A DNA stretch of 63,730 nt, filler included, from Reclinomonas americana ATCC 50394 (GCA_048213135.1; 4 parts of one record of this genome joined end to end with filler, not necessarily neighbours in it), one strand, 5' to 3'; shown: positions 123 to 61,600, counted from the whole stretch's first letter. Numbers and translations are program-made. The notes: a model not told the origin generated them from the sequence alone.

Positions 123-174
123 GAGAGAGAGAGAGAAGAGAGAGAGAGAAGAGAGAGAGAGAGAGATACGCAAC

Positions 175-1143
175 AATCAACAACGGCGTCATTCCACCAG
201 ACTCGGTCGACGCCACCGTCTCCGGCTCCGCGCCCAGCTCCAACAACACACGACACGCATGCAGATTGTTACGCGACGCAGCCGCAAACAAACTGTGCCG
301 ATCCACATGATCAACAAGAGAGAAAGCATAATCCCAACAAAGAGAAACAGAACCGAACCTCGTCTGCCCGCGCGCATTCGCCGCATTCACATTCGCGCGT
401 GCGTCACGCACCAGATACTCAATAACACACACCCAACCAGCAATCGCCGCCTGACTCGTAATGAGAAAGAAGAAGAAGAAACGCAACAAATGCAATCAAT
501 CACTCAACCTGCATCAGCGGAAACAATCCATCACTCAATCGCTTGGCATTGGGGTCCGCGCCACCCACACACAACGCCCGCACAGTCGCCAATGCCACCA
601 TCTCACTCTGCCCATCATCATCATCCACACGATTACTGCGCACACGCGCATGCGAGTGTGTGTGAGAAGTCGCTCGCCATGTTGTCCACTTTTTCGCTGC
701 ACTCACCCGCCACCGCGCGCCGCACTCAGCGACGCCTTGCGCGCATTACCCGCGCCTAATGCCACCAAAAGCGGCGTGTTTCCCATGGCCAGCGGCGACA
801 CCACACTCGGCGCATTCCCGCCCACATTCAACCGCGGAACCAACGGAGGTGCACCCGTGGTCGCAAATGAGACCACTGCCGAGGCCGCTGGAGGCGCTCC
901 GTCGCGGTAGTCGGCGTTGGCGCCCTCGCGGATCAGACGCGAGCAGGCCTCGGCGTCGAGTAACCTGCGCGCGTGCGAGTCGAAAGTGTGAGTCGAAAGT
1001 GAGCGTGTGTGTGAAGAGGAGCAGCCATACCTGGCGGCCTCAACGAGTTCCTTGCTGAGTGACTCTTGTCGCACGGTCATGAGCTGCAGGTGTGTGGAGG
1101 CGCGGCGTTGCCGCTCGCGTGGCGACGTACTGAGGTCCGCCAT
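175..1143 (-). CDS. Ankyrin-repeat protein, N-terminal exons (probably same gene as 2492-3020 and 3182-3947)
   Basis: Exons encode MADLSTSPR..., LIREGANADY, GNTPLLVAL, GADPNAKR, NVNAANARGQT and LFAAASRNNLHACRVLLELGA...GMTPLLI, all ankyrin consensus. Confidence 0.8.
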
Positions 1144-2491
1144 TGTGCGCCCCAACACACATGCAACCCGATTTCGATTCCACCGCTCCACTGCGATCAA
1201 CCGGGCAGCGTGTGTATTTTTGGCGCCGCGTCGATGTCGACTCGACTTGATTTCACTTTGATCGTCAATTGCAAGTGAGCGCGGGCTGCTTGCTTTCACG
1301 GCAAAAGTAAATGTTGTTCGACGTGGATGATACGCCGAGCGTGTTTGAGCCGCGACGGGCGGCGGCGCCACCTCCGCCAACACCTGTGAGGACGTGCGTG
1401 AGGGAGAGAGAGAGAAAGAGAAAGACACGCACCTTACACAACACACACACCTGCACACACACGCTGAGCTCGAGAGAGACAACTAATCTTTCGTCTTGTG
1501 TAGAACTCGCGTATCGGCGATTCAAGTGGGTGGCGAGGTGCGCGCTGTGGTGTACAGTGCGTGCGGATCACTGCGGGTGCGTTGTGTTGTNNNNNNNNNN
1601 NNNNNNNNNNNNNNNNNNNNNNNNNNNNNNNNNNNNNNNNNNNNNNNNNNNNNNNNNNNNNNNNNNNNNNNNNNNNNNNNNNNNNNNNNNNNNNNNNNNN
1701 NNNNNNNNNNNNNNNNNNNNNNNNNNNNNNNNNNNNNNNNNNNNNNNNNNNNNNNNNNNNNNNNNNNNNNNNNNNNNNNNNNNNNNNNNNNNNNNNNNNN
1801 NNNNNNNNNNNNNNNNNNNNNNNNNNNNNNNNNNNNNNNNNNNNNNNNNNNNNNNNNNNNNNNNNNNNNNNNNNNNNNNNNNNNNNNNNNNNNNNNNNNN
1901 NNNNNNNNNNNNNNNNNNNNNNNNNNNNNNNNNNNNNNNNNNNNNNNNNNNNNNNNNNNNNNNNNNNNNNNNNNNNNNNNNNNNNNNNNNNNNNNNNNNN
2001 NNNNNNNNNNNNNNNNNNNNNNNNNNNNNNNNNNNNNNNNNNNNNNNNNNNNNNNNNNNNNNNNNNNNNNNNNNNNNNNNNNNNNNNNNNNNNNNNNNNN
2101 NNNNNNNNNNNNNNNNNNNNNNNNNNNNNNNNNNNNNNNNNNNNNNNNNNNNNNNNNNNNNNNNNNNNNNNNNNNNNNNNNNNNNNNNNNNNNNNNNNNN
2201 NNNNNNNNNNNNNNNNNNNNNNNNNNNNNNNNNNNNNNNNNNNNNNNNNNNNNNNNNNNNNNNNNNNNNNNNNNNNNNNNNNNNNNNNNNNNNNNNNNNN
2301 NNNNNNNNNNNNNNNNNNNNNNNNNNNNNNNNNNNNNNNNNNNNNNNNNNNNNNNNNNNNNNNNNNNNNNNNNNNNNNNNNNNNNNNNNNNNNNNNNNNN
2401 NNNNNNNNNNNNNNNNNNNNNNNNNNNNNNNNNNNNNNNNNNNNNNNNNNNNNNNNNNNNNNNNNNNNNNNNNNNNNNNNNNNNNNNNNNN

Positions 2492-3181: not shown

Positions 3182-3947
3182 CTCGCCGTCCACCACCTCG
3201 TCGGTGACCTCGGCACACTCGCTGATGCCGTCGTCGGCGCCCTCGTCGGCTGCGGTGACGCCGCGTGGCGCGGCGGCGCACACCCCACCGGGAGGCACTC
3301 CTGCGCTGCGTGGACCTCGCGCCGGCGGTGCAGCAGCGGGCTCCACCCCGCCTCCGCCGACGACAGACGTTGTGGCGGCGGCGGCGGCAGCCGATGCAGC
3401 GCGCTCAGGAGGGGAGGGCGGCACCACCACCACCACCTCCACCACCAACACCACGGCAACGAGTGCGGTCGCAAATGGCAGATACTCCACCGCACGTAAT
3501 TCACTCAGTGCTGGCGCAGCGATGGCCACCGCCAATGGCGATGATCAGCACGGCGGCGACCGGGTGGGCATGGTTCTCAAACGCGGCGGCTTTTTCGGGC
3601 GCAGCTGGCAGGAACGGCGGCTGGTGCTGGACTCCAGCGGACGCACCCTGTCGTACTTTAAGAATAAGAAGAAGCAGGCACAGGGCGTCATGTCGCTGGA
3701 GGGCATCAAGGTGCAGGAGGGCGAGGTGGTGTCGAAGAGTCGCGACACTCTCTACACGTGGATCGTACGACCACAAGCTTGTTGCGTCTCGCTTGTCGTG
3801 TTTTTTCTCGCGTGGCGTCCTCTCGCCCACCTCACTTCTTCTCTGCACGCAGCAACAACAAACAAGACGGAATACCTTTTTGCGTGCGCGTCAAGAGAAG
3901 AACGCGCAGAGTGGCTAAGAGCACTTGGCGGCGAGGCACCCACATGA
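3182..3947 (+). CDS. PH-domain C-terminal exons (likely the end of the ankyrin-PH protein)
   Basis: GMVLKRGGFFGRSWQERRLVL...LSYFK...QGVMSL...YLFACASREERAEWLRAL* is a canonical PH domain. Intron at 3781-3852. Confidence 0.85.
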
Positions 3948-3983: not shown

Positions 3984-5729
3984 TCATGCATTGGTGCATT
4001 GCATGCGATACGCGGTGAGCCGGCCCTCAGTGTCGCCCACCAGCAACCGGCTGCCGTCGGCGGTTGCGAGGAGAACATTGACCGGCGCCTGCAGTTCCAC
4101 CACTTGCCGTGGCGCGACAGCCGTTCGCACCAGAGGTGGCGATAGAGCGCTACCACTGCCACTGCCACTGCCGCCGCTGTCACCCTCTGCATCCTCGTCG
4201 TCGTCGGCATCGACGGCAGCGGCTCGTGCCGCCGCAGTCAGATCGTTGAAGCGCCACACGCGCATTACATTGTCGGTTCCCGCCGTCACCACATATCTCT
4301 CGCGTGGCACAAACGGCGCGCCCGCTCCCTGTACGCGCATGTCAGCAAGAAGGGAAGGTACATGTATAAGGTATTGACACGAGGTCACCTTGCCCTTTTT
4401 TCCTTTCCCCTTTTTAGGTGGTGGAGCGGCGGCAGCACTCTCTCCCTCTGGCGTCGGTAGCACAACTTGCAGTACGGCTCTGCACTGACGTGTGAGCTCT
4501 CTCAGGGTCATGCCAGTGCGGACAAGTGCACGCAACAGTTGGCCAATCGACTTGCCGACTTTGTGCGCGCCCTCACGCTCAATCACCGGCAAGAATGGAG
4601 GGCGCAGCGGGAGCACATACAACGATCCACTGGCGGCGCCAGCAAGTGCATACCCGCCGTCTGGAGTGGTAATCGTCGAGTGCACCAGTGGTGGGTTGAG
4701 GAATCCGCCGCTGCGCAGCGCGTGAGCCAAGCATACACACTTTCGTTGACTGGCGACGAGGAGCACGCAACTCGCCCGTGGCAGCGTGCTCCATGAGCGA
4801 AAACGAATGCAGCATCCGCGGTCTTGTGAAGTCCCACAAACACACCGAGCCGTCCAGGGAGCCCGTGATCGCTGCGCAGACAGACGCATCAGTGGCCATG
4901 CAGCGCACAAACCCCCAACAAGGTCACACACCTTCCTTTGGTCGTCGCGGTCGAAATACAGCCGCCGTACACATCTGCCCCACATGAGACACACTGTCAC
5001 AAACAGCTGCGCAAGTATGAGCACGCCCACCTGCGAGTGCTGTCGCAATGCAGCGCGTCGCTGAAACCGTCGAGGCTCCAGTACAAACGCTCGTCCGGTA
5101 TCATCGGCCAGCAACACAAATCCCTCCTTTTCATGCACGTCCAGCTGCGCCCGCACCAACAGCTCAGCTCAGCACAACCTTTCCGCACTGGCACGAGAGC
5201 AGCATAGAAGCTCACTGTGTTGATGTCATCCTCAGTCTCGTACACACATCGCGGCTCCTCTCCGCCCGGCATCTCCACTCGCCACAGCTGCCTCGGAACA
5301 TCATCAACACACGAGCATGCACAGACAAGGAAAGAGAGACAATGACCTTGTTCCCGCACGCAGCCACCACCACATTCTCTTGCGCAGTCAGCAGAAACGC
5401 ACAGGCAGCGATCTTGCATGACGACAAGTCAACAATAATGCATTGAGAGGCAGTGAGTGAGTGAGCTTGCACGCGCGCGCAACTGGTGTCGCAGGTGGAT
5501 CTGCAATGACAACACGATGCAGCAGCTCGCCCGTGGCACTCTCCCACACACTCACACTGCCGTCCTCACTGATCGCAACACACATCAGTCACGCCTTCAC
5601 ATAGACACAAAGAGAGGCATACACGCACCATCCAGTCACCCAACGCCGTCCCGACGCCGACTCACTCACACTCCACACTGCATCACTGTGCTGCGCAATG
5701 ACAGGCGCACTCTCATCGCCGCACAGCAT
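3984..5729 (-). CDS. WD40-repeat protein
   Basis: HSDAVWS|VAISEDGSVSVWE, ITGSLDGSVCLWD, TPDGGYALAGAASGSLYV, VVTAGTDNVMRVWR and LLVGDTEG across several short GT-AG introns. Start codon uncertain. Confidence 0.8.
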
Positions 5730-7402: not shown

Positions 7403-9677
7403 TCATGCTGATGGGCACGAGGCGCACGAGCACGCAGCTGCAGCTGCGGCTGCTGCTGCTGATGGCGACGCCGATGCCGACATGGTCGACGGAGACGCCG
7501 ACACACCGCCAGCCGCGGAACCGGAGCCGGCTGCCACCGACTTGGCGCGGCACGGCACCGAAATGGCCAGCGCGTTGAGATCGGGACGCTGATCCCGTCG
7601 CACGCTGGCCACCCCGGCCACCGCGCCAATTCCCATGCCAAACATGTCTCCGTGCTGCGCCGCATCGTGACTGGCAAAGCGCGCCGACACCACTCCAATG
7701 TGGGCATTATCGGTGNNNNNNNNNNNNNNNNNNNNCCCCACACCACAGCGTCGTGTGTCGGCAACAGTGAGTAAATCGGTCGCATCGATGGCCGCGCAAA
7801 TGCATCCAACGCAGGCTCACTGGAAGATGAGGGGTGGGGGGTGGGGGGGAGGAGTGAGCATCATCGATCGACACAGCGCGTTGAGAATGGTAGCGGGAGC
7901 GCAACTTGGCTGTCAGTGACCACCGACTCAACCCGCCCGCCACATCACCGGCAAACGCCACCGTGCCCGACGGCGCAATGCGCACACTCTCCACGGAGAA
8001 CGAGTGCACCTCGTGCCGACCCAGCACACTGCGCGAACAGGGCAGATATCAGTCACTGTTTGCTTCGTGTGCCACGCGCATGTCCACCACCCACTCACCG
8101 ATGCATGAGACGTGCGTCGTAGAACGAGACAAGACCATCGTTGCCGCCGGTGATCAGCGTGTTGTCGTGCGCATCCATGCTGATGACACGCTGCGACATG
8201 GCACGCACGACATTCACAAAGCGACCAGTGCGGTTGTCAAACACGCGAATCTTGCCGTCGAATCTGTGGCCACGATGCAGAAAAGAAAAGTGAGACCACT
8301 GCCATCATCATCATGCATAAAGGTTGCCAATCATCACGCACCCTCCGCACGCCAACCAGCCGTGCTGCTGAATGGCGGCCAACGAGTATAGTGGCTCCTG
8401 GCTGTTTGGTCTGACTACGGACACCGCCTGGCCCGTGGCGGCGTCGAGTGTGACCAGATTGGCGGAGTTGCACGCCAAGTTCAGCCGATGCAGGGTGCCG
8501 TCAAACACAAAATCGTTGATGCCCTCTCTGCACGACAGAATGAAGAGTTCTTCTTTCAGCCTCACACCTCATTGACGTGATACACACGCGCGCGCATGCA
8601 CACGCAACTGGTCAATCATCAGCGATAGTGGCTTCTGACCCAGAGACCACACGCCCAGCGACCCATCCCTCGACGACGACAGCAACCGACCCTTGGTCCA
8701 CCGCATCCGTGTGACACTGGCCGTATGCAGCGCCACCACCGAGTTCACCGGCGTCCCCGACGCCACATGCGCCACCGTGACGCGTCCATCCGAGAAACCG
8801 CACGACGCCAGCATGGTCGCCAGTGGTGACTGATCGCCACTGCCGGCCTCGCACACTGCCGTGCACGCCGCGTCATCGTTCACANNNNNNNNNNNNNNNN
8901 NNNNGAATGTGTCGACAGTCACATACCGTTGTACGCGGTCAATGAGCCCATGCGCTCGCGCATACGTTCTCCTCAACGCCGTGGCACTGGCCCCATCCAA
9001 CAACGCCGCCGATGACAAGCCCATGGAGAGCGTGGGTGCAGCCACATCACGATTCTATGTCCAATGCGGAGATCAGTACAATATACCACTAACCGCACAT
9101 CGACTTGTGCACACCCACACACACAAAGGAACGGTGAAGGTCAGACACACATCATAGAATCTCACAAACGAAACACACACACGGCGACAGGTGTAGCACA
9201 CGCGCAGCAGACGAGTTCAACATATGACGTGCGTGCGACAGGCGAGTGCGAGAAGAAGGGGGTGGGTGGGGGTCGAAAATCGCGCGATGTCGACTGCTAC
9301 ACCATGCCCCACCACAGAACCCACGCACGCTCACTCACCGCAGGCACAAAGTCTCGTCGCAACAAGCGCTTCCACAGTACATGCACGCTGTTGTGCGCAT
9401 GCTGCTGCTGCTGCTGCACGTCCTCGGTTTGGTCAGTGTCGACGACATGGCCGCTGTTGCTCCCACCCGCAGCGTCTTCTTCTTCTTCCACAGGAGGTCT
9501 TGGTCTGCCCACTGCTGCTGCGATCGATGGCATTCCCAGCGCTCGCACTGAGCGGCACGTGCTCAGCATCGCCAGCACATCCGGCAGCGACAGGTAGCAC
9601 AGCACGTCCATGATGGTTTCCCGCGGAAGTGACAAGAAGCCGACCTCTGCGACCCTCCTCTCGTGAGACGACTGCAT
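7403..9677 (-). CDS. F-box/WD40-repeat protein
   Basis: N-terminal F-box (FLSLPRETIMDVLCYLSLPDVLAMLSTCRSVRAL) followed by WD repeats (LASCGFSDGRVTV, LLSSSRDGSLGVWS, FAGDVAGGLSRWS). Small N gaps inside. Confidence 0.8.
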
Positions 9678-9836: not shown

Positions 9837-12800
9837 ATGTCGTCTCCGCGCCGCTCGGGAGGGGGTGGAACACCACCACCATCACCACCACCTCCACTGC
9901 CCCATGCGGTGCCTCCACTGTCGTTGCCGTCGCCGAGTGAGAGCACTGAGCAGCAGGTGAGTGGGCAAAGGCATCATCAATGCACAGCAGTATGTTCAGA
10001 CTTACGCACACTCTCTCTCTCTCACACTCGCACACACGTCCACGCATCAGTCGCCCATCGCACCAGCGCAACGAGTGCTGTCGGCGGGCAACAGTCCACG
10101 CGAGGGCGCGCTCGGTGTGCCTCTGTCGGCTCGTGCACGTCCCAGCGCGCTGCGTAATCCACTGGTGAACAGAGCAGCGACGCCACCGACAACACAACAG
10201 CAGCAGCCGCAGCAGCAGCAGCATGCGTATGGTGCGGAACGAGTGGGCAGCAGTCGGGGTGGTGACAGCACAGCGCTCTTGGTGCCACCACCGCTGCCGC
10301 CACAACCACCACTCGCGTTGGCGCCAAGTTCACTCTTGTCGCCCATGACTGCTGGCGGAAGCGGGCGGTCAGTGTCGTTTCGGCGCAGTGCACGTCACAT
10401 GCCCACCAGTGGCGGGGGCGGCAGCGGCAGCGGCGGCGGCGGGAATGCGCTGCTCACCACCGGTGTGCCCGCCATTGTGCTCCTGCCTGAAGACACTGCG
10501 CCGCATCCGCTCTCGCCGGCCCTCGCCAGCCCCGTCGCAGCGGCGTCTCCTGCCACCGACACACCTGCGGCGTTGCGTCACTTTTCGCAGCCGCCGATGG
10601 ACCGCGTCGCAGTGAGTGCACTGCCCATGTTGGGTGGCTTTATGACGCCAGAGGGAGGAGCGAGAAACCCGATGCAACCGCGCCCCTCCATCACCTCATG
10701 CACCTCTGGCGACGTGTCTATCATCTCTGCTATCGACTCGAGTGAGGTACGCTGGCGTGCGCGATTGTCGGTCGATCTGTGTCACACGTGATTGACGTAG
10801 AACACACGCAGGCCGGCAGCGACGCAGAATTCGCCAGGGCCATGGACTCGCGGGCTCTGGGATGCCTCGGCCCAGAGAACGGCTTGCGTCTGTTCTTGGC
10901 CGACGTCATGCGCAACAAATATCCTTCATTTTTGCTCTTTCGCTTCTGTGTTGATTGGCCTCCTTGTGTGTGTGTCCTTGACTCCTACGTGCTGCTGCCA
11001 TTACGTGGTTCGACAGGACGATCATGATTGTGATTCTGCTCAACTGCGTGTTCCTGGCCATGGACAGCCCCTCAAGCTCTCCCCAAGACACGTCGTCGTT
11101 GCGTCGCAGTGGTCTAGTGCACGTCATTGACTGTTGGTGTGAAAACCAACACTGGTGGATGCAGAGCGATTTCGCGAATCTCGGAGCTCGTATTCAACTC
11201 CATCTTCACTGTGGAGATGCTCATCAAGGTCTCTCTCCCACTCCTTCTCTCTTCCTTTCTGCGTGCTGAGTTTGCGATGATTAGGTGTCGGTTCTCGGAT
11301 TTGTGGCACACCCTGGCGCGTATCTGCGAAACGGGTGGAACATTATGGACTTTTCCATTGTGGCGGTGGGCTGGATTGGCCAGCTGCCGGGCATTGGGTC
11401 GTTCACCGTGTTGCGCACACTTCGTGTACTGCGCCCACTGCGCACCATTACCACCATTCCAGGTGCACGATGATGTGTGCCCACGTTTTTTTGGGGTATC
11501 GTCGCAGTCCTCTCACGCTCTCTTTGTCATTGGCATTGCAGGGCTGAAAGTGATTGTGTCCTCCATCCTGCTATCGCTGCCTCGACTCGTCCACGTGCTT
11601 GGACTTGCGTGCCTGTTCTTCGTCATCTTTGGCACGCTGGCCGTGCAGTTGTGGAAGGGCATGCTGCAGTACCGATGCGTGGATGCGAATGGTGCGTCCC
11701 TGGCGCCTATTCTGGTATTCTCCCTTCCGCGTGGTGGTGCACCACAGCTCACAACGCATGCTCTTTACGCACAGGCAACCTGTTCGGAGTCGATCAACTG
11801 TGCAGCGTGGACGGCACCGGCTACGCGTGTCCCAGTGGCTACTCGTGCATCTCGGTCGGAATCGCACCGAACTCAGGATACACCAATTTCGACAACCTCG
11901 GCTGGGCCGTGCTGACCATCTTCCAGTGCATCACTCTCGAGGGCTGGTCCAACGTGATGTATGACGTTGCGTTGGCAAGCAAAACCGCAGTGGCACATTG
12001 TGTTACGAACTCACGTCGTATCTTAACGGGCGCAGACGCAAGACGCCTGGAATCCATACGCCTGCATCTATTTCATCGTGGTCGTGGTGTTTGGCGCATT
12101 CTTCATCCTCAACTTGGCTCTGGCTGTCATCAACGACAGGTTCCTGCGCAATCAGACGCGAATCGACGAGAAGCAGAAACGGCTGCGGATGAAGTTCGTC
12201 CATACAGATGATACATTAGTTCTTTTTGCACATGTCCCTGCGATGTGCTGACTGGTCTGACTGCGTACCACCACAGCACCCTCTACAATCGGCATCGCAG
12301 TGCGGCGCATTCGCGTTCGCACATGATGGGCTCGCAGCACAGTTTCATGGCCCGGGAGGCCAGCAATGCGAGTCAGATGCACAGCGCGCGCCGAGGGTTC
12401 GTTGTGAGCGCAACTCGTACTCTGGTTGCTTTGTATCGCATCACTTACATTTCACATAGGAGCGAGATGAGCGTGGCGTCGGACGCCACAGGGTGCGGAT
12501 GCATGTCGTTGTTGTCACGCCTTCTGCAACCTGTTAATCATTGATGCGTCGTGCGCAGCATTCCCGGTTTTGTCATTCACAAGATCAGTCTGCGTGATCT
12601 CGACGCCAGCAGGAATAACCTTCTCGGTGACAACGCACAAGGCGACAGCGGGCGCAACAATGGTGGTGCCAGAGGAGAATTTGATCGTGGTCGACGACCC
12701 CGTAACTGTGTTGTGCGCATCTACGACAAGACTGCAGAGTTCATCTCGGCATGCATTGGTCGTGTGCGTACATCCATCCACACCTTGTCGTTCGCCCTTG

Positions 12801-15800
12801 CTTCTTTCAACAGTCTGACTCTCTGTCTTGTCACGATGCTGCGCAGTGTCGCCGACAACGTGACGAGTACGAAGACGACTCCGATGTGGAGGACATGGAT
12901 GTGTGTGAATCGCTCGACGGCGTCGGCGACAAGCTCGAGAGACGTGCGTCGCAGGAGTCGCTGGAGTCGCTGAGCCAGGTTGTAGCCCCACAGAGTGCTG
13001 TGGCTGACGCGGACGAGAGGCCGCGTACTCGCAGCGTGCGTGTGGCGATGACGCCGACCAACTTGGATGACGAGCCGCCCGTTTCTGCTCGGCGACCTGC
13101 GACACCCCTGCAGCAGCCGACCGCCGGTCTACTGCGGCGCTTCTGGACTGCCTCTCGAGCGCTAACTATGCGCTTTGTGGCCAACAAGTGGTTCGGGCGC
13201 ACAGTACTTGCCGTCATTCTCCTCAACACGCTTGCTCTCGCCTTGCAATACTACAATATGCCGAAGATACTCAAGTCCATTCTCGGTGAGTGTGACAGAC
13301 AACAACATGCGGCGTGCTCACGTGTGTACACTGAGCGCTCACTATGCCGACCAGATGCCGGCGACGTGACCTTTACTGTGTTTTTCGTCTGTGAGATGGT
13401 GCTCAAGGTGTACGCCATGGGAGTACGAGACTATCTGAATTACACCTTTAACATCTTTGATGGTACGTCTGCTGCAAGTGCGCTCATTGTCGTTTTTTAA
13501 CCCCTCGTGTTGAATGGCGCAATAGGTGTGGTGGTCATCGTCAGCATTATTGATCTCTCCATCACGTCCCCGGATGGAGGGACATTTGGTTTCTCCGTGT
13601 TGCGCTCACTCCGCGTGCTTCGTATCTTCAAGTTGTTCAAGTTGAGTACTGTTTCCTGATGTACCGCTGTCTAGACCCCCGAGCTGACGCGTGCCGCTGT
13701 ATTATCAATCCGCAGGAGCGCCACTCGTCTGAATGGTGTCATGAAAATCATCACCAAGGCCATTATCAACATTGGCTACCTCAGCTTGGTCATCTTGCTG
13801 TTCTTGTTCGTCATTGCTCTGATCGGTACGTGGCAGCTACTCACAGTCAGTCTATATTGTGGTGATGTGTTAATTGCTGACTCTCTCTGGCATGCACACG
13901 CGCAGGCATGCAGATCTTCGGCACCAGCATGGATCCCAATGTCAGCAGCAACCGGGCCAGCTTCAATGATTTTGTGTGGGCCTCGTTGACGGTGTTCCAG
14001 CTCATTACCAGCGAGAACTGGAACGACGTTCTCACCAAGGGCATGAATGCAGCCGGCGTCGTCTCGTCCATTTTCTTTGTGTCGGTGGTGGTCTTTGGCA
14101 ACTGTATCCTTTTTTTTGATTGCTGCCTGTTGTTGTCGATTTGCTGTGCTGGTCTGACCTCCTTAACTTGCTCCGGCTCATCACAGTCATTCTTCTCAAC
14201 CTGTTCCTCGCCATTCTCATCCGAAGCTTTGACGAACGCCAGAAGAAGAAGGAGAAGAGGGTTCGCTGTGCAGTCGCACGTGCTGAGCACGCAAGCTTCG
14301 ACTCACTTGCCTGCGCGTCATGTGCAGGAGGAGGCTCGGAAGGGCAAGGGCGAAAACGACAACGGCGAGCAAGACAGCACCGATTCATCGTGCAGTTCTG
14401 AGGATTCGCTGATTTTCCTCCAAGCTCCACAGCTGCGCTTCTCTTTTATCTCGCATGCAAACGGTGCGGATCGTTGTCAAACATACTTTCTCTGTCTTTC
14501 CCCCCTTGTCGTTAAACTATCCAGCACAGACTCCCAGATCGATGCCACCAAAGAGAATCAGGATGCCGAGGCTGAGGTGCGTCCACTGCTGCTGCTGCCC
14601 ACCGAACAAAAAACAGACAGCACAATGAGCTCATCATCGCCTTTACCCGTGACTGCAGAAACCGCCTCCAGAAGTCACTGTGGAGGGCAAGAGCACTCCA
14701 GAAGTCACTGCCACCCCCGGTGTAGTGCCACATCTGCAGACAAGTTACGTCGATTGCGCGCACATGCAGCAATCAATCATCAATCCAACCATTACCAATT
14801 GTGCAGTGAGCGGTGATAGCATCCACCCGGCCGCACTGCTGTTTCGCATGCGAAAGCAATCGGTGCTCGGCAAGAAGGGCTTTTCGATCAAGCCGCACAA
14901 GAAGCGGCGGCGTTCGCCAGCTGTGGCACCCAGTACCGACAACTCGCTGTCGACAGGTCTATAATAGATCTATCGCGAGGGGGAGTCTGCTGCAAAATAC
15001 TCACACGCCACCTGTGTTGCAGTATCGGCCGGTGCACCTCTACGCAGCCTCTCGCGTCAGCGACTGTTGGCAGCAGCTGGCGAGGTGGAAGAAGTGTTGC
15101 ACAACTCCAGCTGGCGAAGTCAGCGTGGCCTGACGAGCGATCTGCCTCGCGGACGCAGCATGCGATTTGCTCAGGCCGCATCGGCTCATTCTGGTGCGTA
15201 CATGTGCATCACAAGATCTCTCACACTCGACTTTTCTCACAATATGCAGATGCCGATGCCCGTTCACACCTCTCCGATGAGATGTCCTCCGAGGGCTCTG
15301 CCGGTGCCCTCTTTGATGAGTCAGAGGTACGCACGCAAGCTTCTTCATTTTGTGCTCACAAACTCACCACTCGAGTGCAATGCAGTCTTCAGACGACTCG
15401 ACCGAGTCGCCAGCCGATGAGTTCGACCCGGTTCTCGGCTACCTCAAGGTCCAAGAAGCACAACAGCACGCCAGACCGCGGTGGTGTGGGTGTGTAGCTT
15501 TGGTACATCTTTCAGTTTCCCAACATGCTTTTATTCACTGGCATCCACGCAGTTGTTTGTGCGCGTGCACTCACAAACGACATGGAGATCAGGACGACAA
15601 CGAAGAGAAGAGCGCGGGCAGTGACGAATCCGACACCGTCGGCTGGTCCGACGACGAAGACGATGCTGGCGAGGGGGAGGGCCGCCAGCATACCGGCGGC
15701 ATACGGTCCATGTTTGTGCAAGACAACGATCCTGCGAACAAGTCCACAGAGTGGATTCAGCAGCAGCTCAGCAAATTGCGATCACCAGGCACGCGAAAGG

Positions 15801-36699: not shown

Positions 36700-37272
36700 A
36701 TGGCGACGGCGACGGCACCGGCTCAGGCGCAAGAGGTCACCGCAGAGGATCAGCGCAACATCAACACGTTTGGTCGGTTGACCACGCGGTTGAAGCAGCT
36801 GGATGGAGAGATCAATGCGCTGAAGGTCACACATACACGCGCTCTTGCACACACTCACGCGCGCGTTCCTCACACTCTCTTGCGTTGCAGGCTGAGATCA
36901 CCAAGATCGACAATGCAGTGGACGAGGCCATGCTGTGCGACGATGTGAGGTACGCACATGTGTGTGAGAGAGACAACATGGGTGTTGCTCACACACACAC
37001 TGTCACACAAGGATCGCCATGGGCGACGGCTTTGTCAAGGTGACCTCGGACCAGGCAGAGAGCATGCTCACCGAGTTGGGCGCCTCACTAAAGGAGGACG
37101 TTGCGTGTGTTTGTGTGTGCGCGCTTGTCACCCACACCTCAACGCTCATTGTGTGTTGTCTCAGTTGACGAGAAAGGAGGCTGAGGTGGAGACCATTAGC
37201 GCCACCACCACGCGACTCAAGGCCGTCCTGTATGGCAAGTTCGGCTCCTCCATCAATCTCGACGAGAAGTAG
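36700..37272 (+). CDS. PFDN4: Prefoldin subunit 4
   Basis: EVTAEDQRNINTFGRL...IAMGDGFV...LKAVLYGKFGSSINLDEK*; 3 introns. Confidence 0.93.
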
Positions 37273-41517: not shown

Positions 41518-42677
41518 ATGGACCACCGACGACGCAGGTGGACATGCCCAGACACACACACACTCACTCTGCTTGCACTCACTTGTCCGCCTTCTCTCAC
41601 ACATGCAGCTCTCCTGCTCGCCATCATCACCGCCACGAGTCACGTGCTCTCTCGCCACCTCTCCCGCCTCCTCTCCCGCGCAGTCACGCACACGGGCCCA
41701 GCACACCCGATTTCGACCGTAGACAGCGGCGGTATCCGCATCGTCATCCGCGCTCGCCTTCTCCACCGCGTCACCAGTGCGTTTCCACATAGAGAGCAAG
41801 GGGTCTACATAGTGTCAAACACTCGTCTGTGTGTGTGTGTGTGTGTGCACAGAGGGCGTCCGCGATCGTCGTCGTTGCCCGACGAGTACCGTCATCGACG
41901 CAGTGATGGTCGCTCGTCGACAACACGCAAGTCGCCTTCTGTGAGTGTGTGTGTGCATAGACAGGCAAAGTGCCTGCTTGTTGACTGCACGTGAGCAGGT
42001 CGACGAGGAGATTGCGGAGCGCGTGGCCATGGGCGCGTCGCAAAAGGAGATATTTGCGCTGGTTCGTTGTGTGCTGCTGGTCGAGTGAGTGAGTGAGAGC
42101 TGACGTGTATGCATGCAGCAAATGGAGCGCGAGGGTGCTCGGCGTGAGCAGCGACGGTACCCTGGCGATGGGGCAATGGCGTCGCGAGGCGGTCGGCAAT
42201 ACGGTGGAGGTTCGAAAACAATGCACACACCAGCGACCAAGTGAATGTGTGTTCTTATGCTGCTGCAGAGCGCTTGTCGGGTGGGCGGTTCGACCCGTAC
42301 CGCGGCAGCGCAGAGGGCTCCTCACGTGCGCGATCCGATGCCACCGCCGGCCGCTGGAAACACGACTTGTTCTCGCCCGAGCCGGCGAATGGCGACGGGA
42401 AGTGGCATCGAGGCGGAGGCTTTGGATCGTCGCGTCAGCACCATCGGTCGTCGACAGGCAGTGGCAATGGCCGTCCTGTGCGAGTTGCGTGCTCTTTGTC
42501 GTCGCTCCACTTCCCCTACACACTCAACTTGTCGTGCAGCCGCTGTATCGTTCAATGCTGGGCGGCGATGCGCAGGAACCCGCCGCGGCTCCCGCGGTAA
42601 TCGAAAAAGAGGAAGTAGAAGCAGAGGAAGGAGAAGAGGAAGACATGCAAGCCGAGCTGCTTGGTGACGATGAATGA
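41518..42677 (+). CDS. Hypothetical Arg/Ser-rich protein with an acidic tail
   Basis: Short exons (RSPSPPR, GRWKHDLF, EKEEVEAEEGEEED) bounded by GT-AG introns. The exon chain is only partly resolved. Confidence 0.5.
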
Positions 42678-47859: not shown

Positions 47860-50800
47860 ATGAACGCCGATCACACCTTCACGCTTGCCTCTGGTGCTCG
47901 CATGCCGGGCATTGGCTACGGTGCCTTTTGCCTTGCGCACGCACGCACTGTGCACGTTCTCACAATGCGTGCATTGTTGTTGCATTGCAGGCACATGGAA
48001 ATCGCAGACTGGTGGAGAGACAGAGAGTGCAGTGCGGTGTGCACTGGAGAGCGGGTATCGCCACATTGACTGTGTTGCGTGACGAGGAGGCGGAGAAGAG
48101 CGCAATGCAGAAGCGAATCTTTAACAACAGGATCTGCAGGCGCAAATCTACTGCAACGAGCAGGAGGTGGGAGTGGCACTGGAGGAGTTCCTTGGTGGTG
48201 AGAAGGACGGCAAGGTGACTCGTGAACAGGTGTGGATCACTACGAAGCTGTGGAGCACTGTGCGGCGACCGGAGCATGTGCGCGAGGCGGTGTTGGGGTC
48301 GCTCGAGCGCCTGCGTGTCGACTATGTGGATCTGCTGCTCGTGCACTTGTATCCGGCGTTCAGGTGTGTCTCTCTTTCTGTCTCTTGTGGCTGATCTTGC
48401 TCGGCTGCTGACTCTTGACGGGTTGGCAAGATTGCCGACGGGCACCGACCTGGCGCACTGGCCGACTGTCAGCGACATTCACAACCCGGTGCTGTTTCCC
48501 ATGCGGGAGGTGCAGCAAATGTCGACTGCGTCGCGCACATAGCCATCGCGATTCGTTCTCACGTCGAGTGCGTATGCGCAGGATGGCAAGGGCATCGATG
48601 TGGATNNNNNNNNNNNNNNNNNNNNNNNNNNNNNNNNNNNNNNNNNNNNNNNNNNNNNNNNNNNNNNNNNNNNNNNNNNNNNNNNNNNNNNNNNNNNNNN
48701 NNNNNNNNNNNNNNNNNNNNNNNNNNNNNNNNNNNNNNNNNNNNNNNNNNNNNNNNNNNNNNNNNNNNNNNNNNNNNNNNNNNNNNNNNNNNNNNNNNNN
48801 NNNNNNNNNNNNNNNNNNNNNNNNNNNNNNNNNNNNNNNNNNNNNNNNNNNNNNNNNNNNNNNNNNNNNNNNNNNNNNNNNNNNNNNNNNNNNNNNNNNN
48901 NNNNNNNNNNNNNNNNNNNNNNNNNNNNNNNNNNNNNNNNNNNNNNNNNNNNNNNNNNNNNNNNNNNNNNNNNNNNNNNNNNNNNNNNNNNNNNNNNNNN
49001 NNNNNNNNNNNNNNNNNNNNNNNNNNNNNNNNNNNNNNNNNNNNNNNNNNNNNNNNNNNNNNNNNNNNNNNNNNNNNNNNNNNNNNNNNNNNNNNNNNNN
49101 NNNNNNNNNNNNNNNNNNNNNNNNNNNNNNNNNNNNNNNNNNNNNNNNNNNNNNNNNNNNNNNNNNNNNNNNNNNNNNNNNNNNNNNNNNNNNNNNNNNN
49201 NNNNNNNNNNNNNNNNNNNNNNNNNNNNNNNNNNNNNNNNNNNNNNNNNNNNNNNNNNNNNNNNNNNNNNNNNNNNNNNNNNNNNNNNNNNNNNNNNNNN
49301 NNNNNNNNNNNNNNNNNNNNNNNNNNNNNNNNNNNNNNNNNNNNNNNNNNNNNNNNNNNNNNNNNTGCGCGCGTGAGTGACTGCAACAGGAGACAACTGC
49401 GCACAAGCAGTGCACGAACCAGTGGACAGTATGCTGTCACGTGCACGCTGCGCTTCCAGCACTCGTGCAGCAGCTCGTCTTGTCGCCACATGGGATGCAC
49501 CTCAATCTGTGACCATCACCTGATCAGCGTACCGGGCATCATCCATCTCAACAGACGTCGATCGTCGCACCTGGTTGACACACGGGCGCACATTGGCAAA
49601 CGCCAGCACTTCGTCGATGCGCGCAGCATTAAAGTTGCTCACACCCAGGTGCTTGATGCGACCCTCCTCGACCAGCGCTACCCCACAGCAGCAGGTGAGT
49701 CTCAGCAACAAGAACGCACCGCACACAGCCGCCACTCAACTCTCCAGCACGCTCCATGTGTCGCGCAGCGGCACGTCNNNNNNNNNNNNNNNNNNNNNNN
49801 NNNNNNNNNNNNNNNNNNNNNNNNNNNNNNNNNNNNNNNNNNNNNNNNNNNNNNNNNNNNNNNNNNNNNNNNNNNNNNNNNNNNNNNNNNNNNNNNNNNN
49901 NNNNNNNNNNNNNNNNNNNNNNNNNNNNNNNNNNNNNNNNNNNNNNNNNNNNNNNNNNNNNNNNNNNNNNNNNNNNNNNNNNNNNNNNNNNNNNNNNNNN
50001 NNNNNNNNNNNNNNNNNNNNNNNNNNNNNNNNNNNNNNNNNNNNNNNNNNNNNNNNNNNNNNNNNNNNNNNNNNNNNNNNNNNNNNNNNNNNNNNNNNNN
50101 NNNNNNNNNNNNNNNNNNNNNNNNNNNNNNNNNNNNNNNNNNNNNNNNNNNNNNNNNNNNNNNNNNNNNNNNNNNNNNNNNNNNNNNNNNNNNNNNNNNN
50201 NNNNNNNNNNNNNNNNNNNNNNNNNNNNNNNNNNNNNNNNNNNNNNNNNNNNNNNNNNNNNNNNNNNNNNNNNNNNNNNNNNNNNNNNNNNNNNNNNNNN
50301 NNNNNNNNNNNNNNNNNNNNNNNNNNNNNNNNNNNCGGAACAGGGTGGCAGTCCTGACATGAAGTCACGTGTGATGACGCGCTGTTCATGAATTCGCTCA
50401 CCGCTTTGCTAATCGCCACCCGCGCAGACCCAAGGTGGCTCCGAGTCACGTCCTCGACGACTCCATCCTGCTGGAGCTCGCCAAAAAGTACGACACTGGT
50501 CCGGCACAAATTGCTCTGGTGCGTATGTGCCTCCTTTCTTGACATGAGCACGCCACCTGATAATCACACGCATGCATAACAGGCGTGGGGACTGAAGCGT
50601 GGCACCAGCGTGCTTCCCAAGGTGTGTGCATTTCCGCATCTCCGCAAGCTGCCCTGCAGTTCCGTGCCACTCATCGTTGGTGCTCTCGCAGTCGGTGGTA
50701 CCAGGACGTATCGACGCCAATCTGCACGGCACCCTGCAGATCCTCGACAAGGTCACCGACGAAGACATGGACAAGGTGTCGGGGTGTGTTCGGCAACTAC

Positions 50801-52982: not shown

Positions 52983-55828
52983 NGTGCGCGGCCACGCTCT
53001 CTCGGCGCGATGTGCACCAGTGGTCGGAGGCGCTGGAGGCGGCTCAACAGGTGTGAGACTTGCGCGGTTGCTCGGCAGTGTGTCCACCTGAATCGCGTTT
53101 GTAGGCCGGAAACCTGTCAATCCAAGCGCACTGTGCCGACAGGATTGCGCGCCTACGCAAACAAGACGAACACCTGTGGCTCCAAGCCGCCATGCTACAC
53201 GAGCAGAACGGCAAACCGGCATTGGCACAAAAGGTGTGTGCGTCTTTATTCTCTCTCGTGCACGCTCCCGCCCGTCTCCATGTCGCTGAGTCGCCTGCAG
53301 GTCCTTCGTGCCGGCTTCCGCCACATGCCCATGTCGCCCACTTTGGTGATGCAACTCGCCGACACACTGTACCGAGCAAAGAACGTGGATGACATGATCG
53401 AAGTCTTGAAGGAGCATCTCAGCCTAGTGTGTCGCAATGCACGCGCTGCTCGTTACATCTCGCTCCCCGCGCGCGCAAGTTACCGAGTGGGTGACAGCGT
53501 GCTGACATTGCGTGCTGTTGTCGGGTGCAGGTCAACAGCCGGTGGCCATCATTCCCGACGTGGTCAGTGCGAACACCATGGTCAACACGCTGTCGCGTTT
53601 GCTGGTGGAACGACAGCAATACATGGCGGCACGAGAGGCCATCCGCGAAGTGTGGGATGCCTTTGCGACGCCCGTTCCCGCTCGGCATCGCGACTTGCGG
53701 ATTCTCGACGCCATCTGTCAAGCGCGACTGGGTGAGCTGTCAGTGGTGAGTGCCGAGTACAGTCGTCATCATTCGGCGGTGATCGTGTGTTCTCACGCGC
53801 GCACATTTCTCGCAGGCGGCGCCAACGTTGGCTCTGGTGAAGCAGCAACCGATTGTGGAGTACCACGACATGTACTTTCGAGTGGGCGAGTCGTTGCGTT
53901 GTCGGCAAGGCGTCGCCGTCACCGTCTGTGTGGCACGTTGTCATTCACAATCGTCGCGTCGACAGCTTTCACCTGCTCGGACATCACGAAGAGGCTCTGC
54001 AATATTATGCCGCCCTGGAACCGTACGCTGAAACCGAGTACCGCCAGCTGTCGTATCACATGGCCAATTGCAAGAGAGCACTTGGTCGCGTGTTGGAAGC
54101 CTTGGAGGATTATCGGCGCTGTTGCGTACACGCATCGTCGCTGGCCTTTTTGATATCGAACTCTCACCGCTGTATCGACTCGTGCTTCTCTCCAGCCATT
54201 CGCCTCATCAATGATCACCAGAGCAAGGTGGAGTTGTGTGAGCTGTACAGGCAATTAGGACGGAGTGCTGATGCGGACGCATTGTCGGCTGAGCTCGATG
54301 GTGAACGTTGTGTGCACGAGCAATCTCTCTCTCCTCGCTGACGTGCGCACACATGCACACACAGACGAACAGAATCCGCTCGACACGTGGAAGGCCGCCC
54401 TCATGCATCACCGAACCGGCGACTGGGAAAAATTCTTGTCGCTCGCCAAGCGCATTATCGAGCGGGGCTTTGTGCGCGAGGAGGTGAGTCAATCGTCGCG
54501 TTCTTCGCGCATAATTCCTGCCTGAGCACCGTGCGATTTTGTGACAGCGCGGTGCCGCCAAGGCCAGTCGACTGCGTGAGGAGCATGCCGGAGCCGTTGC
54601 AGTAGGTGGGTGCTGTAGAGCGGGAGAGAAGGATGAACAGCGTCGTGGCGCTCACCGTCTATTGGGCAATTAGAGGGCGCCCACCGGTCAGCGTGGGGAG
54701 ATCTGCGCAAAGTGATTTCCGCTGCCGATGTGGACGATCTCGTGCGCAAGGTGCGAAGCGCGACTGCCACCGTTGATTGATTTTGCTAGGCTGACACTTT
54801 GACTGGGCTGGCAGGCGGTGCGCGTGCTGGCGCAAAAGGGCCGCCTCTCCGAAGCATTTGCCATGCTCGAGCTTGTGGAGGGTCGTTACAAGGCCCGAGA
54901 AATGGCGCAGTTTCGCGACGGCATCATGTTTCTGAGGATCGGTGCGTGTGTGTGCACATACACTCGTATTTTATCACGCAAACGCCAACTGTGTGTGCAC
55001 TCGCAGGAGTGTGGGCCGTGGCTGGTCAGACAAAGAAAGCGCTGGAGAAGCTCACGTGGGCCATGAATCTCAAGTCGGACTCGCTGCGACTGTGGCAGTT
55101 TTACAACAGCCTCCTGCCGTGTTCCTCGTCCTTTACCTCACAGAAGCGCATCGTTGTTTCGTTCTGTTGTGTTCAGTGTGCCGCTGAACGCTGTCGCTGA
55201 ACATGCTCCCTCGCAGCTACGCCTCAAGCGGACTCACAAGGACAGTCCACCGTGTCTGCTGATGGTGGCCCATAACTTCCTCGCCAGCAAGTCATACTCG
55301 CTGGCAATCGCTTTTTATCAGCAGGTGTACCGCATGCGACCGCGCGATCCACTGGTGCACCTGTGTCTCGGTACGTTACTCTTCTCCCCCACCCCCCCCT
55401 TCCCCCCTCCTCCTCCTCCTCCGGTATTTACGGGGGTCACGAAAAAAACACAGGCGTGGCGCACTTGCTGTCGGCATCGTCGCGAACCGCGCGGCGGCAG
55501 CCGTACATTGTGGCGCAGGCATTCGCCTGGTTGCTGCACTACCTGCACCACCGCTACAGCGGCACACACTTGCAAGAGGTTTGAGTGGCCACACTCACAA
55601 GAGAGAGAGAGCGAGGCGCTGATTCCTCGCTTGCAGGCACTCTACAATTTGGCGCGCGCATTACAGGGAATCGACTTGTGCCACCTTGCCACTCCACTCT
55701 ACGAACGTGCCCTGTCGTGCCCCGGCCCGCTGCAGCCGGAAATCGCCTTCAACCTGTCGCTGATCTACCGCACCTCGGGCAATCATGCGCTGGCGCGCCA
55801 GCTGCTGCACCGGTACATTGTCGCCTGA
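52983..55828 (+). CDS. GTF3C3: TFIIIC TPR subunit (TFIIIC102/Tfc4), 5'-truncated
   Basis: TPRs plus a characteristic C-terminus: AIAFYQQVYRMRPRDPLVHLCLG...AQAFAWL...QE|ALYNLARALQGIDLCHLATPLYERAL...EIAFNLSLIYRTSGNHALARQLL. Confidence 0.9.
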
Positions 55829-58576: not shown

Positions 58577-58620
58577 NNNNNNNNNNNNNNNNNNNNNNNN
58601 NNNNNNNNNNNNNNNNNNNN

Positions 58621-58632
58621 TTAATTAATTAA
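58621..58632. other. Artificial six-frame-stop scaffold linker
   Basis: TTAATTAATTAA within N run. Confidence 0.97.
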
Positions 58633-58676
58633 NNNNNNNNNNNNNNNNNNNNNNNNNNNNNNNNNNNNNNNNNNNN

Positions 58677-61600
58677 CACATCCACGTTCACCATCAGCGA
58701 AGGTTTGTATCGCTCCTTATCTGTTAAAAGTCGCGTGGCTGACTTAGTGTCTGGGGTGCGCAGCAAATGTGCCTCCGTCTGCTCCGACGATTTCGTCGAC
58801 TGCGTACAACCCACCGCTGGCCCTCAACGACGTTATCGGCGTCTTGTCCTCGACAGACGCAAACACTGGACAGGTTTTGACGTTCAGCATTGTGGGTGGT
58901 GCGGATCAAGCCTCGTTCAATATTAGTGGGTCCAATCTTCGTTGCAATGTTGCCGGCCTCTCCGGCTCCAACTTGGTGGTCATTGTGCAAGTTAGTGACG
59001 GTGCTGGTGGCACAAACACCACAACATTTACGATCGGCAGCTGTTGCGTTGCATTCCACTCTCTCTTGAATCGCCTGGTTGTTGCGCCTGCCTGACTTTG
59101 CTCCGTGAAACACAGCGAACTTGCCGCCGTCTGTGCCCACGTTGTCGACTGTGCTTTACGTTCCACCTCTGGCGCTCAACGGCGTCATTGGCGCGTTGTC
59201 GGCCACCGACCCGAACGTCGGCCAGACGCTGACATTCAGCATTCTGGGAGGAGCCAACTCGGCGCTCTTCAACATCAGTGGCTCAGACTTGCGATCCAAT
59301 GTGGCTGGTCTCGTCGGCAACAACTTGGAGGTAATTGTCGAAGTCAGCGATGGATTCGGCGGACTGACAAATGCCAGATTCTTGATCAGCGAAGGTTGGT
59401 GGCACGCCGCGGCTCTCGTGTCTTGCACAAGTCGTGCATGCTGTTGCTCATTCTTCTCCCGCACACAGTCAACGTGCCACCCACTGCACCCATCCTCTCG
59501 TCCTCGTCGTACATTCCCCCACTGGCCGCCAATGGAGTCATTGGCATCCTGTCATCCACCGACGTCAACAGCGGGCAGTCGTTGACGTTTACGATCACTG
59601 GTGGTGCGCATCAGGCACTGTTCAACATCAGTGGTTCCAGCCTCCGAAGCAGTGGTGCCGGACTCACCGGCAACAATCTGTCGGTGGAGGTCACTGTGTC
59701 GGATGGCGCCGGTGGCACTAACGTCAGCACATTCGTCATTGGCGAAGGTCTGATGCACCTGCTGTCTGACGTCCCATTTTTGTTTGCTGATTTGATTGTC
59801 TGTCGCGACCGCACAGCCAACGTGAATCCCACTGCGCCGGTGCTGTCTGCGCTCTCATTCACACCGCCGCTTCCGTTCAACGGCGTCATCGGCGCCCTGT
59901 CCTCCACAGACCCCAATACGGGTCAAGCGTTGACGTTCACCATTACCGGAGGCGTCAACGCAAGCTCGTTTGCCATTGTCGCCTCGGACCTGCGCTCCAA
60001 TGTGGTGGGACTGAGTGGAATCAATTTGCAAGTGGTGGTGACCGTCAGTGATGGTGCAGGTGGCACCGCCAGCAGCACATTTACCATCACTGAAGGTACG
60101 GTTTCGTGTTTCCAGAATTCATTCACGCTGGTACTCATGAGGTGCTGCTGTACATAGTCAATGTGCCACCATCTGCTCCATCCCTGTCACCCTCGACGTA
60201 CGCGCCGCCTCTGGCACTCAACGGTGTCATTGGCACCCTCTCGTCGTCGGATCCGAATACGGGACAGACGCTCTCGTATTCCATCATCGGCGGCGGCAAT
60301 CAGGCATCGTTCAGCATCAGCGACACAAGTCTGCTGTCGAATGTTGCCGGCTTGACAGGAAACAGTCTGCAGGTGACTGTGCAAGTCAGTGATGGCGCCG
60401 GAGGTATCAACAGTACGACGTTCTCGATCAGCGAGAGTTGCGTGATTGAAGTCTGTGGCAAGACGCGATGTCACTGTCGCTGAATGCTTGTTCCTTGATT
60501 GCAGGCAATGTGCCCCCGAGTGCACCAACACTCTCGACCACTCTGTATGCGCCACCACTGGCCTTGGGCGGCACAATCGGCACACTGGCCGCCACTGATG
60601 CGAATTCTGCGCAGACACTTGTTTACGCAGTCACCGGTGGCACAGATCAGTCCGACTTTTACGTTGTTGGCAACAGCTTGCTCTCCCATGTCAATGGACT
60701 CAGCGGCAACGGTCTTCAAGTGGAGGTCACTGTGTCGGACGGAGCCGGNNNNNNNNNNNNNNNNNNNNNNNNNNNNNNNNNNNNNNNNNNNNNNNNNNNN
60801 NNNNNNNNNNNNNNNNNNNNNNNNNNNNNNNNNNNNNNNNNNNNNNNNNNNNNNNNNNNNNNNNNNNNNNNNNNNNNNNNNNNNNNNNNNNNNNNNNNNN
60901 NNNNNNNNNNNNNNNNNNNNNNNNNNNNNNNNNNNNNNNNNNNNNNNNNNNNNNNNNNNNNNNNNNNNNNNNNNNNNNNNNNNNNNNNNNNNNNNNNNNN
61001 NNNNNNNNNNNNNNNNNNNNNNNNNNNNNNNNNNNNNNNNNNNNNNNNNNNNNNNNNNNNNNNNNNNNNNNNNNNNNNNNNNNNNNNNNNNNNNNNNNNN
61101 NNNNNNNNNNNNNNNNNNNNNNNNNNNNNNNNNNNNNNNNNNNNNNNNNNNNNNNNNNNNNNNNNNNNNNNNNNNNNNNNNNNNNNNNNNNNNNNNNNNN
61201 NNNNNNNNNNNNNNNNNNNNNNNNNNNNNNNNNNNNNNNNNNNNNNNNNNNNNNNNNNNNNNNNNNNNNNNNNNNNNNNNNNNNNNNNNNNNNNNNNNNN
61301 NNNNNNNNNNNNNNNNNNNNNNNNNNNNNNNNNNNNNNNNNNNNNNNNNNNNNNNNNNNNNNNNNNNNNNNNNNNNNNNNNNNNNNNNNNNNNNNNNNNN
61401 NNNNNNNNNNNNNNNNNNNNNNNNNNNNNNNNNNNNNNNNNNNNNNNNNNNNNNNNNNNNNNNNNNNNNNNNNNNNNNNNNNNNNNNNNNNNNNNNNNNN
61501 NNNNNNNNNNNNNNNNNNNNNNNNNNNNNNNNNNNNNNNNNNNNNNNNNNNNNNNNNNNNNNNNNNNNNNNNNNNNNNNNNNNNNNNNNNNNNNNNNGAA

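Follow-up and report, generated by a model that had tools for sequence, protein, structure and literature searches.

To our knowledge, pairing at a 5' splice site in a shifted or bulged register has been described only from humans, where it acts as a rare means of rescue. The shifted-register sites of Roca and Krainer (2009) are reportedly represented by a model oligonucleotide, ACA/GUCAAGUAUA (the slash marks the cut, here and throughout), in which the exon ends in a base other than G. According to one study, a shifted register on U1 small nuclear RNA (snRNA) has been demonstrated experimentally in human cells, a precedent that we count in favour of the reading developed below; the validated noncanonical registers, taken as a whole, account for 1.5% of human 5' splice sites, and a register in which the base at +2 or +3 is bulged is predicted at 68 sites (PMC4856993). 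A second study divides 5' splice sites into an AG//GUNNN and an NN//GURAG class (Parker et al., PMC11732430). Here we analyse a window of 63,730 bases (the whole stretch of DNA under study) from Reclinomonas americana ATCC 50394 (GCA_048213135.1), an intron-dense eukaryotic scaffold in which 9,958 bases are N, distributed over 27 gaps. We propose, with a probability of roughly 0.55, that its U2-type introns use a second donor consensus, H/GUUGCGU (H being A, C or U), beside the ordinary one, and that U1, followed by U6, pairs with this consensus in a register one base off from the cut.

The GTTGCGT donors and their introns

A sequence-only reading of the window had put forward an abundant second class of 5' splice site, and our census agrees with it. 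In a gene parse made without any donor model, words of the form GTTG[CA]G[TC] were chosen for 10 of 68 introns, against a background of about 107 GTTG[CA]G words among the 7209 GT sites of the window. A two-component position-weight mixture on those 68 donors split, unaided, into a.G/GTGCGTg (68%) and cc./GTTGCGTtt (32%). The curated set of 117 donors comprises 32 of the form GTTG[CA]G (about 27% in the window; hereafter variant), 50 of the form GT[GA][CA]G (canonical) and 35 others. All gene models are our own, and come from a dynamic-programming parser that scores codon log-odds, asks of introns only that they run GT..AG, and treats split codons exactly. Early passes, run before branch and length were scored, swallowed small exons in long false introns. 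The final version also scores the two-component donor mixture, the branch and acceptor signals (CT[CG]A[CT], YAG), intron length as a prior and intron composition, and converged on 110 introns with donors divided 72% to 28%. Where homology showed this version to err, it was corrected by hand: the in-frame introns at 18700 and 59748 were read through, 13599 was picked over 13641, and a longer false intron from 17790 took in the one at 17999. The rows at 13599 and 17790 were accordingly dropped or replaced in the counts of intron features and phases given below.

The motif is also abundant as a word. GTTGMGT (M being A or C) matches 46 times within the window, where dinucleotide-preserving shuffles lead one to expect 22.3 and none of 100 shuffles reaches 46. 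GTTGCGT itself occurs in 33 copies, counting both strands, against 11.4 expected under an order-3 Markov model, and is the most over-represented 7-mer outside low-complexity sequence, with GGTGCGT behind it (29 versus 16.6); the most over-represented 7-mers of all come from (TG)n and (CT)n runs. Of these 33 copies 25 are called intron starts, while H-GTGCGT is called a donor at 6 of 70 occurrences, and within predicted genes 24 copies of GTTGCGT are sense and one is antisense. GTTGAGT and GTTGCGC, which had been counted as members of the class, contribute some called donors but are mostly not used as such (4 of 13 and 2 of 19, respectively) and show no strand bias (4 sense and 4 antisense; 6 sense and 7 antisense). 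The donor class is essentially GTTGCGT plus a few relatives. Further donor words with T at +3 stand at 12194, 12397, 14261, 16226 and 43693 (+) and at 18871, 31546 and 55156 (+), and consist of GTTCGT and GTTCGC in the normal register, plus GTTTCGT. At 55579, agag/GTTTGAGTG resembles GTGAGT displaced by two bases.

The sequence-only reading had listed 27 intron starts (21 on the plus strand, five on the minus strand and one exceptional site near 508), and all of them carry the motif ascribed to them. As intron starts, 24 of the 27 are backed, 11 by homology or profile and 13 by the gene parse only. Two, 16317 and 42484, found no support in homology, profile or parse, and the intron beginning at 174 (-) has its acceptor outside the window. 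Seven variant-type donors come in addition: 29510 and 29954 on the plus strand and 4536, 7905, 21488, 22108 and 49740 on the minus strand. Removal of the variant introns restores reading frames.

Three of the 11 junctions backed by homology or profile lie in a plus-strand STI1/HOP gene. A hidden Markov model (HMM) was built from homologs of 520-620 amino acids among the 150 returned, and all in-frame GT/GC-AG combinations near each junction were scored with it. The called pair scored highest each time: for caa/GTTGCGTG at 42967-43178 (phase 2) among 15 candidates, for caa/GTTGCGCT at 44137-44203 (phase 2) among 32, and for gct/GTTGCGTA at 44325-44392 (phase 0) among 114. The spliced product, of 406 amino acids, is collinear with HOP homologs over 399 residues. 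Its closest homologs are about 40% identical and bear the names of an oomycete, an ichthyosporean and a heterolobosean, which are unrelated lineages; a metagenome scan with an STI1 exon returned two distant loci of 33-40% identity, not usable as relatives. The coding sequence begins with the ATG at 42738 and has its own first intron at 42741-42814. The unsupported site at 42484 (a/GTTGCGT) is followed by a plausible branch and by an acceptor 63 nucleotides (nt) on (42484-42546, ACTCAAC...GTGCAG). Since it lies upstream of this start codon, it could begin an untranslated-region intron at most, and 42484-42546 may be such an intron.

Eight further listed sites are tied down by Pfam coordinates, which either continue from one exon to the next or begin directly behind the intron. 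Five belong to a four-domain ion channel on the plus strand. There, gtc/GTTGCGTC at 11098-11164 (phase 2, domain I) separates Ion_trans positions of about 32 and 33-34, and gac/GTTGCGTT at 11966-12035 (phase 0, pore loop I), also chosen in parses with and without the donor model, separates positions 196 and 197. The exon before caa/GTTGAGTA at 13641-13715 (phase 2, after S4 of domain II), an intron present in the donor-model-free parse, ends at position 109. Behind atc/GTTGAGTA at 17999-18071 (phase 0, S1 of domain IV), residue 2 of the downstream exon is position 9, and behind tca/GTTGCGTC at 18700-18762 (phase 0, pore loop IV), the 63-nt in-frame intron that the parser read through, the alignment opens at position 173. 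A search with a channel exon for homologs among longer proteins returned no matches, so the channel junctions are placed by Pfam coordinates only. In the PH-domain gene, ctt/GTTGCGTC at 3781-3852 (+, phase 1) divides profile positions of about 76 and 77 and is also in the parse. The aldo-keto reductase junction HIDC/AQIY, claimed earlier, is likewise borne out: tgt/GTTGCGTG at 48074-48139 (+, phase 0) interrupts GYRHIDC/AQIYCNE, and residue 1 of the downstream exon is Aldo_ket_red position 39. Another aldo-keto reductase exon, on an inverted scaffold piece, starts at position 127 behind the previously unlisted aga/GTTGAGTG at 49678-49740 (-, phase 1; minus-strand introns start at the higher coordinate).

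The eighth site had been singled out as the only possible case of a variant donor after G, and remains so, as one of 32. This intron, cag/GTTGAGTG..TCAG/gc at 451-508 (-), lies in the ankyrin gene, and residue 1 of the exon behind it is Ank profile position 9. A second copy of the motif, t/GTTGCGT, stands at 487, 21 nt further in (481-508); an intron from 487 would measure 37 nt, below the shortest seen (55). After an ankyrin exon, motif and position mark a variant intron start at 174 (-), att/GTTGCGTA, the visible part of which spans 1-174, with the 3' end outside the window. Its sequence over positions 1-173 consists of CCCCCATGCTCTT-like units in tandem together with a (CT)n run.

The 13 listed sites backed by the parse include four chosen both with and without the donor model: cca/GTTGCGTG at 8528-8608 (-, phase 2) in the WD40 gene, previously given only as probable; tct/GTTGCGTT at 25683-25738 (-, phase 0) in the YL1 gene; gca/GTTGCGTC at 26277-26344 (-, phase 2); and gac/GTTGCGTG at 37100-37164 (+, phase 0). 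A fifth, gct/GTTGCGTT at 59043-59115 (+, phase 1), was also chosen in both and marks a repeat-unit boundary in a cadherin-like repeat protein, where repeat comparison agrees with it, as it does with aga/GTTGCGTG at 60437-60504 (+, phase 1), which the parse places at the same position of another unit. The others are cga/GTTGCGTG at 4711-4771 (-, phase 2), aga/GTTGCGTC at 15810-15874 (+, phase 1) in a channel linker, cgc/GTTGCGTT at 31941-32017 (+, phase 2), whose acceptor choice is weak, tgc/GTTGCGTC at 39145-39308 (+, phase 2) and aca/GTTGCGTC at 41233-41299 (+, phase 0) in the SHIPPO-repeat gene, and gtc/GTTGCGTT at 53893-53965 (+, phase 2) and gct/GTTGCGTA at 54121-54195 (+, phase 1) in the TPR gene. 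The remaining newly found introns, likewise from the parse only, are act/GTTGCGTG at 4480-4536 (-, phase 2), caa/GTTGCGCT at 7820-7905 (-, phase 2), the variant-like aat/GTTGCGGT at 21432-21488 (-, phase 1) in the E2F/DP gene, caa/GTTGCGTG at 22044-22108 (-, phase 2), aga/GTTGCGTG at 29510-29572 (+, phase 2) and agt/GTTGCGTC at 29954-30008 (+, phase 2).

Behind the donor, the two classes look alike. Each of the 31 complete variant introns runs from GT to AG, in 30 cases with CAG at its 3' end. Median length is 67 nt in variant and 70 nt in canonical introns, a branch of the form CT[CG]A[CT] is present in 24 of 31 and 40 of 50, respectively, with CTCAC, CTCAT, CTGAC and CTGAT used by both, and the median distance from branch to 3' end is 18 nt versus 20 nt. 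Position -3 of the acceptor is C in 30 of 31 and 41 of 50, and intron composition is the same. From these signals, the variant introns are predicted to be ordinary U2-type GT-AG spliceosomal introns. An origin as an introner or transposon-derived family was rejected: an all-against-all blastn of 115 introns gave five rows in all, none of which involves a variant intron, so these are not copies of a mobile element, and they have no sequence in common beyond splice signals. Boundaries displaced by one base at both ends (TT..AGN) were rejected as well. Where the next exon begins with G, TT..AGN and GT..AG would give identical messenger RNA, but both classes share the acceptor consensus CAG/, and we know of no spliceosome that uses TT..AGN ends.

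Last exon base, codon phase and repeat introns

The exon in front of a variant donor was claimed to end in a base other than G, and on this point the contrast between the classes is strong. G occupies position -1 at one of 32 variant donors and at 43 of 50 canonical donors in the curated set (Fisher p = 9e-15). Because the mixture model itself includes position -1, the count was repeated on the donor-model-free parse, where the corresponding figures are 0 of 10 and 8 of 14 (p = 0.006). Seen from the exon side, the 48 donors without -1 G comprise 30 variant, 7 canonical-type and 11 other donors, and the 67 donors with -1 G include a single variant one. G precedes one of the 33 copies of GTTGCGT, but it is already infrequent before other GTTG words (69 of 475), so that measured against the local background alone the depletion is only marginal to modest.

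The classes also differ in phase. Phase 2 accounts for 15 of 31 variant introns and for 10 of 84 of all other introns (p = 7.5e-5). A phase-2 intron follows the second position of a codon, where a G would change the amino acid, whereas a phase-1 intron follows the first position, where G is common. The phase-2 excess fits a variant donor that takes over where the encoded protein leaves no room for G as the last exon base. Five variant donors have the exon end caa/ in common.

A natural comparison is offered by the cadherin-like tandem-repeat protein at 58681-60746 (+), built of units of about 115 amino acids, in which a phase-1 intron interrupts the corresponding codon of each of six repeats. 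Their donors read, in order, g/GTTTGT, t/GTTGCGT, g/GTTGGT, g/GTCTGA, g/GTACGG and a/GTTGCGT. GTTGCGT thus follows T or A in both cases in which it occurs, and the four other donors all follow G. The sequence-only reading had further suggested that a single substitution could slide an intron by 1 nt. These six paralogous introns argue otherwise, since they share the exact phase-1 position whatever their donor type and the position never moves by one base; if only the donor moved by 1 nt, the reading frame would be lost.

Register of recognition and competing explanations

Both donor classes can be written as a single heptamer, G-K-U-G-C-G-U (K being G or U), which is cut after the first G when K is G and before it when K is U. 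The earlier description of GTTGCGT as G-GTGCGT with T for the second base and the cut one base upstream fits this alignment, and the position profiles follow the offset. The T that ends the block is found at +7 in 29 of 32 variant donors and at +6 in 35 of 50 canonical ones; inside the block, C outnumbers A by 28 to 4 at variant +5 and by 40 to 10 at canonical +4; the base before the initial G is A in 14 of 32 cases at variant -1 and in 15 of 50 at canonical -2. Taken with the contrast at position -1 reported above, the profiles place the block one base deeper in the intron and put the +1 G in place of the -1 G, which is the arrangement that distinguishes a shifted register. With U at K, no GU is usable except the one that starts at the first G, which would place the cut one base upstream (/GUUGCGU). 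We propose that the heptamer would be read by pairing with the 5' arm of U1, and later with U6, in a register one base off relative to the cut, and that the catalytic core would then pick the first GU. The +1 G of the intron would thereby fill the slot held elsewhere by the -1 G of the exon, and the exon end would be freed from G.

Several points weigh against this shifted-register reading. The evidence consists of the window's sequence, protein homology and published papers, the junctions are predicted, and the sample is one window. The donor model of the final parser includes position -1, which makes its counts partly circular. The offset profiles are not identical, canonical -2 being G in 9 of 50 donors and variant -1 in one of 32. 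Nearest-neighbour energies, computed with the textbook U1 arm, from which the organism's own may differ, are likewise unfavourable: H/GUUGCGU comes to +2.1 kcal/mol in the shifted register (+0.4 when an A at -1 pairs with U10), +2.5 in the bulged and +2.6 in the canonical register, compared with -1.6 for H/GUGCGU and -9.2 for G/GUGCGU. The mean best duplex energy is -1.9 kcal/mol for variant and -6.4 for canonical donors, and the 3' block lies in the +1 register in 14 of the 32 best variant duplexes. A search of the window with Rfam gave no match, to U1, U6 or any other family, at the gathering score; at E <= 1 it gave three weak microRNA or small-RNA matches, none of them an snRNA.

As every forced register of H/GUUGCGU is at +0.4 kcal/mol or above, standard U1 alone leaves unexplained why, where the exon does not end in G, GTTGCGT (30 donors) prevails over GTGCGT-like words (7). 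Either, we infer, a G paired with C9 of U1 counts for more than usual in this organism's U1 small nuclear ribonucleoprotein, or the arm of U1, of a second U1 or of U6 differs from the textbook one. Of the earlier proposal of a shifted register or a dedicated snRNA, the one-base offset is therefore matched by the donor anatomy, while the textbook arm supplies no energetic reason for the preference, and the mechanism stays conditional.

It is this failure of the textbook arm that keeps a dedicated snRNA under consideration, although we hold it to be unlikely. A variant U1, possibly with a matching change in U6, would carry an arm fully complementary to GUUGCGU, for instance through a change at U1 position 8, and two major-type systems would work in parallel: the standard one would read G/GUGCGU, and the second U1, perhaps with its U6 partner, would free about a quarter of introns, especially those in phase 2, from an exon-terminal G. 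Such an arm would account both for a donor preference that the standard arm leaves unexplained and for a heptamer with which that arm is predicted to pair stably in none of the registers. Conservation at the terminal T is no weaker in the variant heptamer than in the canonical one, and the excess of C over A at the fifth position, as at canonical +4, hints at a non-textbook arm. Against this stand the identity of the two classes in everything 3' of the donor and the empty Rfam search for an snRNA gene. The 5' arm of U1 is, moreover, nearly invariant across eukaryotes, and no eukaryote is known to us in which a quarter of the introns are served by a second U1.

More doubtful still is a bulged register, in which the +1 G and +2 U would pair normally, one U (+2 or +3) would bulge out and GCGU would pair as in canonical donors. 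The human bulges at +3 (or +2) cited at the outset have experimental support according to that study (PMC4856993), and the three called GTTTCGT donors, which look like GTTCGT with an additional T and follow G in one case of three, could be taken the same way. A bulge would nevertheless leave the -1 G paired with U1 C9, and hence favoured, where only one of 32 variant donors has it, and the forced bulge is energetically no better than the shifted register. That the motif is an artefact, compositional or repeat-derived (as introner ends would be) or produced by misplaced gene-model boundaries, we consider very improbable, for although the junctions are predicted from sequence, 13 of the 24 supported listed sites come from the parser alone and G is generally scarce before GTTG, the variant introns have no blastn match to one another, the motif lies almost exclusively on the sense strand, it appears in a parse without a donor model, and the homology tests pick exactly these GT-AG pairs, with profile continuity in agreement.

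The surrounding genes and the place among known systems

Pfam searches of long open frames give the gene context of these introns: an ankyrin gene (-), a PH-domain gene (+), RBFA (+), a WD40 gene (-), an F-box gene (-), the four-domain Ion_trans channel (+, about 10.9-19.3 kb), E2F/DP (-), YL1 (-), a SHIPPO-repeat gene (+), STI1/HOP (+), TAFII28 (-), the aldo-keto reductase (+), a TPR gene (+) and the cadherin-like repeat protein (+). Two pieces between N gaps run opposite to the genes that contain them. At 45345-45668, TPR exons of the plus-strand STI1/HOP gene lie on the minus strand, and at 49366-49777 aldo-keto reductase exons do so inside a plus-strand gene; both are probably scaffolding errors.

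Should about a quarter of introns throughout this lineage carry the displaced donor consensus, gene finders and splice-site models that rest on one donor matrix will put many of its exon ends in the wrong place, as our own parser did before its donor model was made aware of the two classes. The coupling of the donor to the last exon base, together with the phase-2 excess, would then offer a testable case of coding constraint shaping splice signals, and the failure of textbook U1 predicts something unusual in this organism's U1, its U6 or their protein partners.

Minor-class introns resemble the variant class in providing a second, sharply conserved donor consensus beside the major one in the same genes, and the channel gene contains a predicted example at 14104-14186 (+), act/GTATCCTTT...CCTCCTTAAC...CACAG, identified by the parses and by its donor and branch signals. 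It starts act/GTATCCTTTTTT, and its branch, CCTCCTTAAC, is followed by 19 nt to CACAG/tc. The organism therefore has a minor spliceosome too. Unlike such introns, the variant ones lack the RTATCCTT donor and the TCCTTAAC branch and show major-class branch and acceptor signals instead; a U12-type identity was rejected, the donors being GTTGCGT and the branches CTCAC, CTCAT or CTGAC.

Among U2-type systems, the human shifted-register sites, as presented in PMC4856993, share with the variant donors a GU donor, a U1-complementary block one base deeper, a +1 G in place of the -1 G and an exon that ends in a base other than G. They are exceptional in human, whereas here the arrangement makes up a substantial fraction of donors, has a near-invariant heptamer, GUUGCGU, and forms the main type of donor without -1 G, as known from sequence. 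The human bulge at +2/+3, from the same source, is similar in having an additional U right after GU and then the normal consensus block; it differs in predicting a retained -1 G preference and in being rare. The NN//GURAG class, as described in PMC11732430, shares the anti-correlation between -1 G and the intronic match, which appears here as 30 variant donors among 48 without G and one among 67 with it. That class keeps the normal register, with G at +5, while the variant donors have U at +3, G at +4 and C or A at +5, their block being displaced by one base; and, unlike the split between AG//GUNNN and NN//GURAG sites, canonical sites here mostly carry both the -1 G and the intronic match (43 of 50). 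In a limited search of the literature we found no description of a GTTGCGT donor class, the string turning up in primers and unrelated genes only, and an earlier mention in some genome paper is possible. The shifted register itself is thus known; what looks new is a donor consensus displaced by one base that serves as a routine form for about a quarter of the introns in this window.

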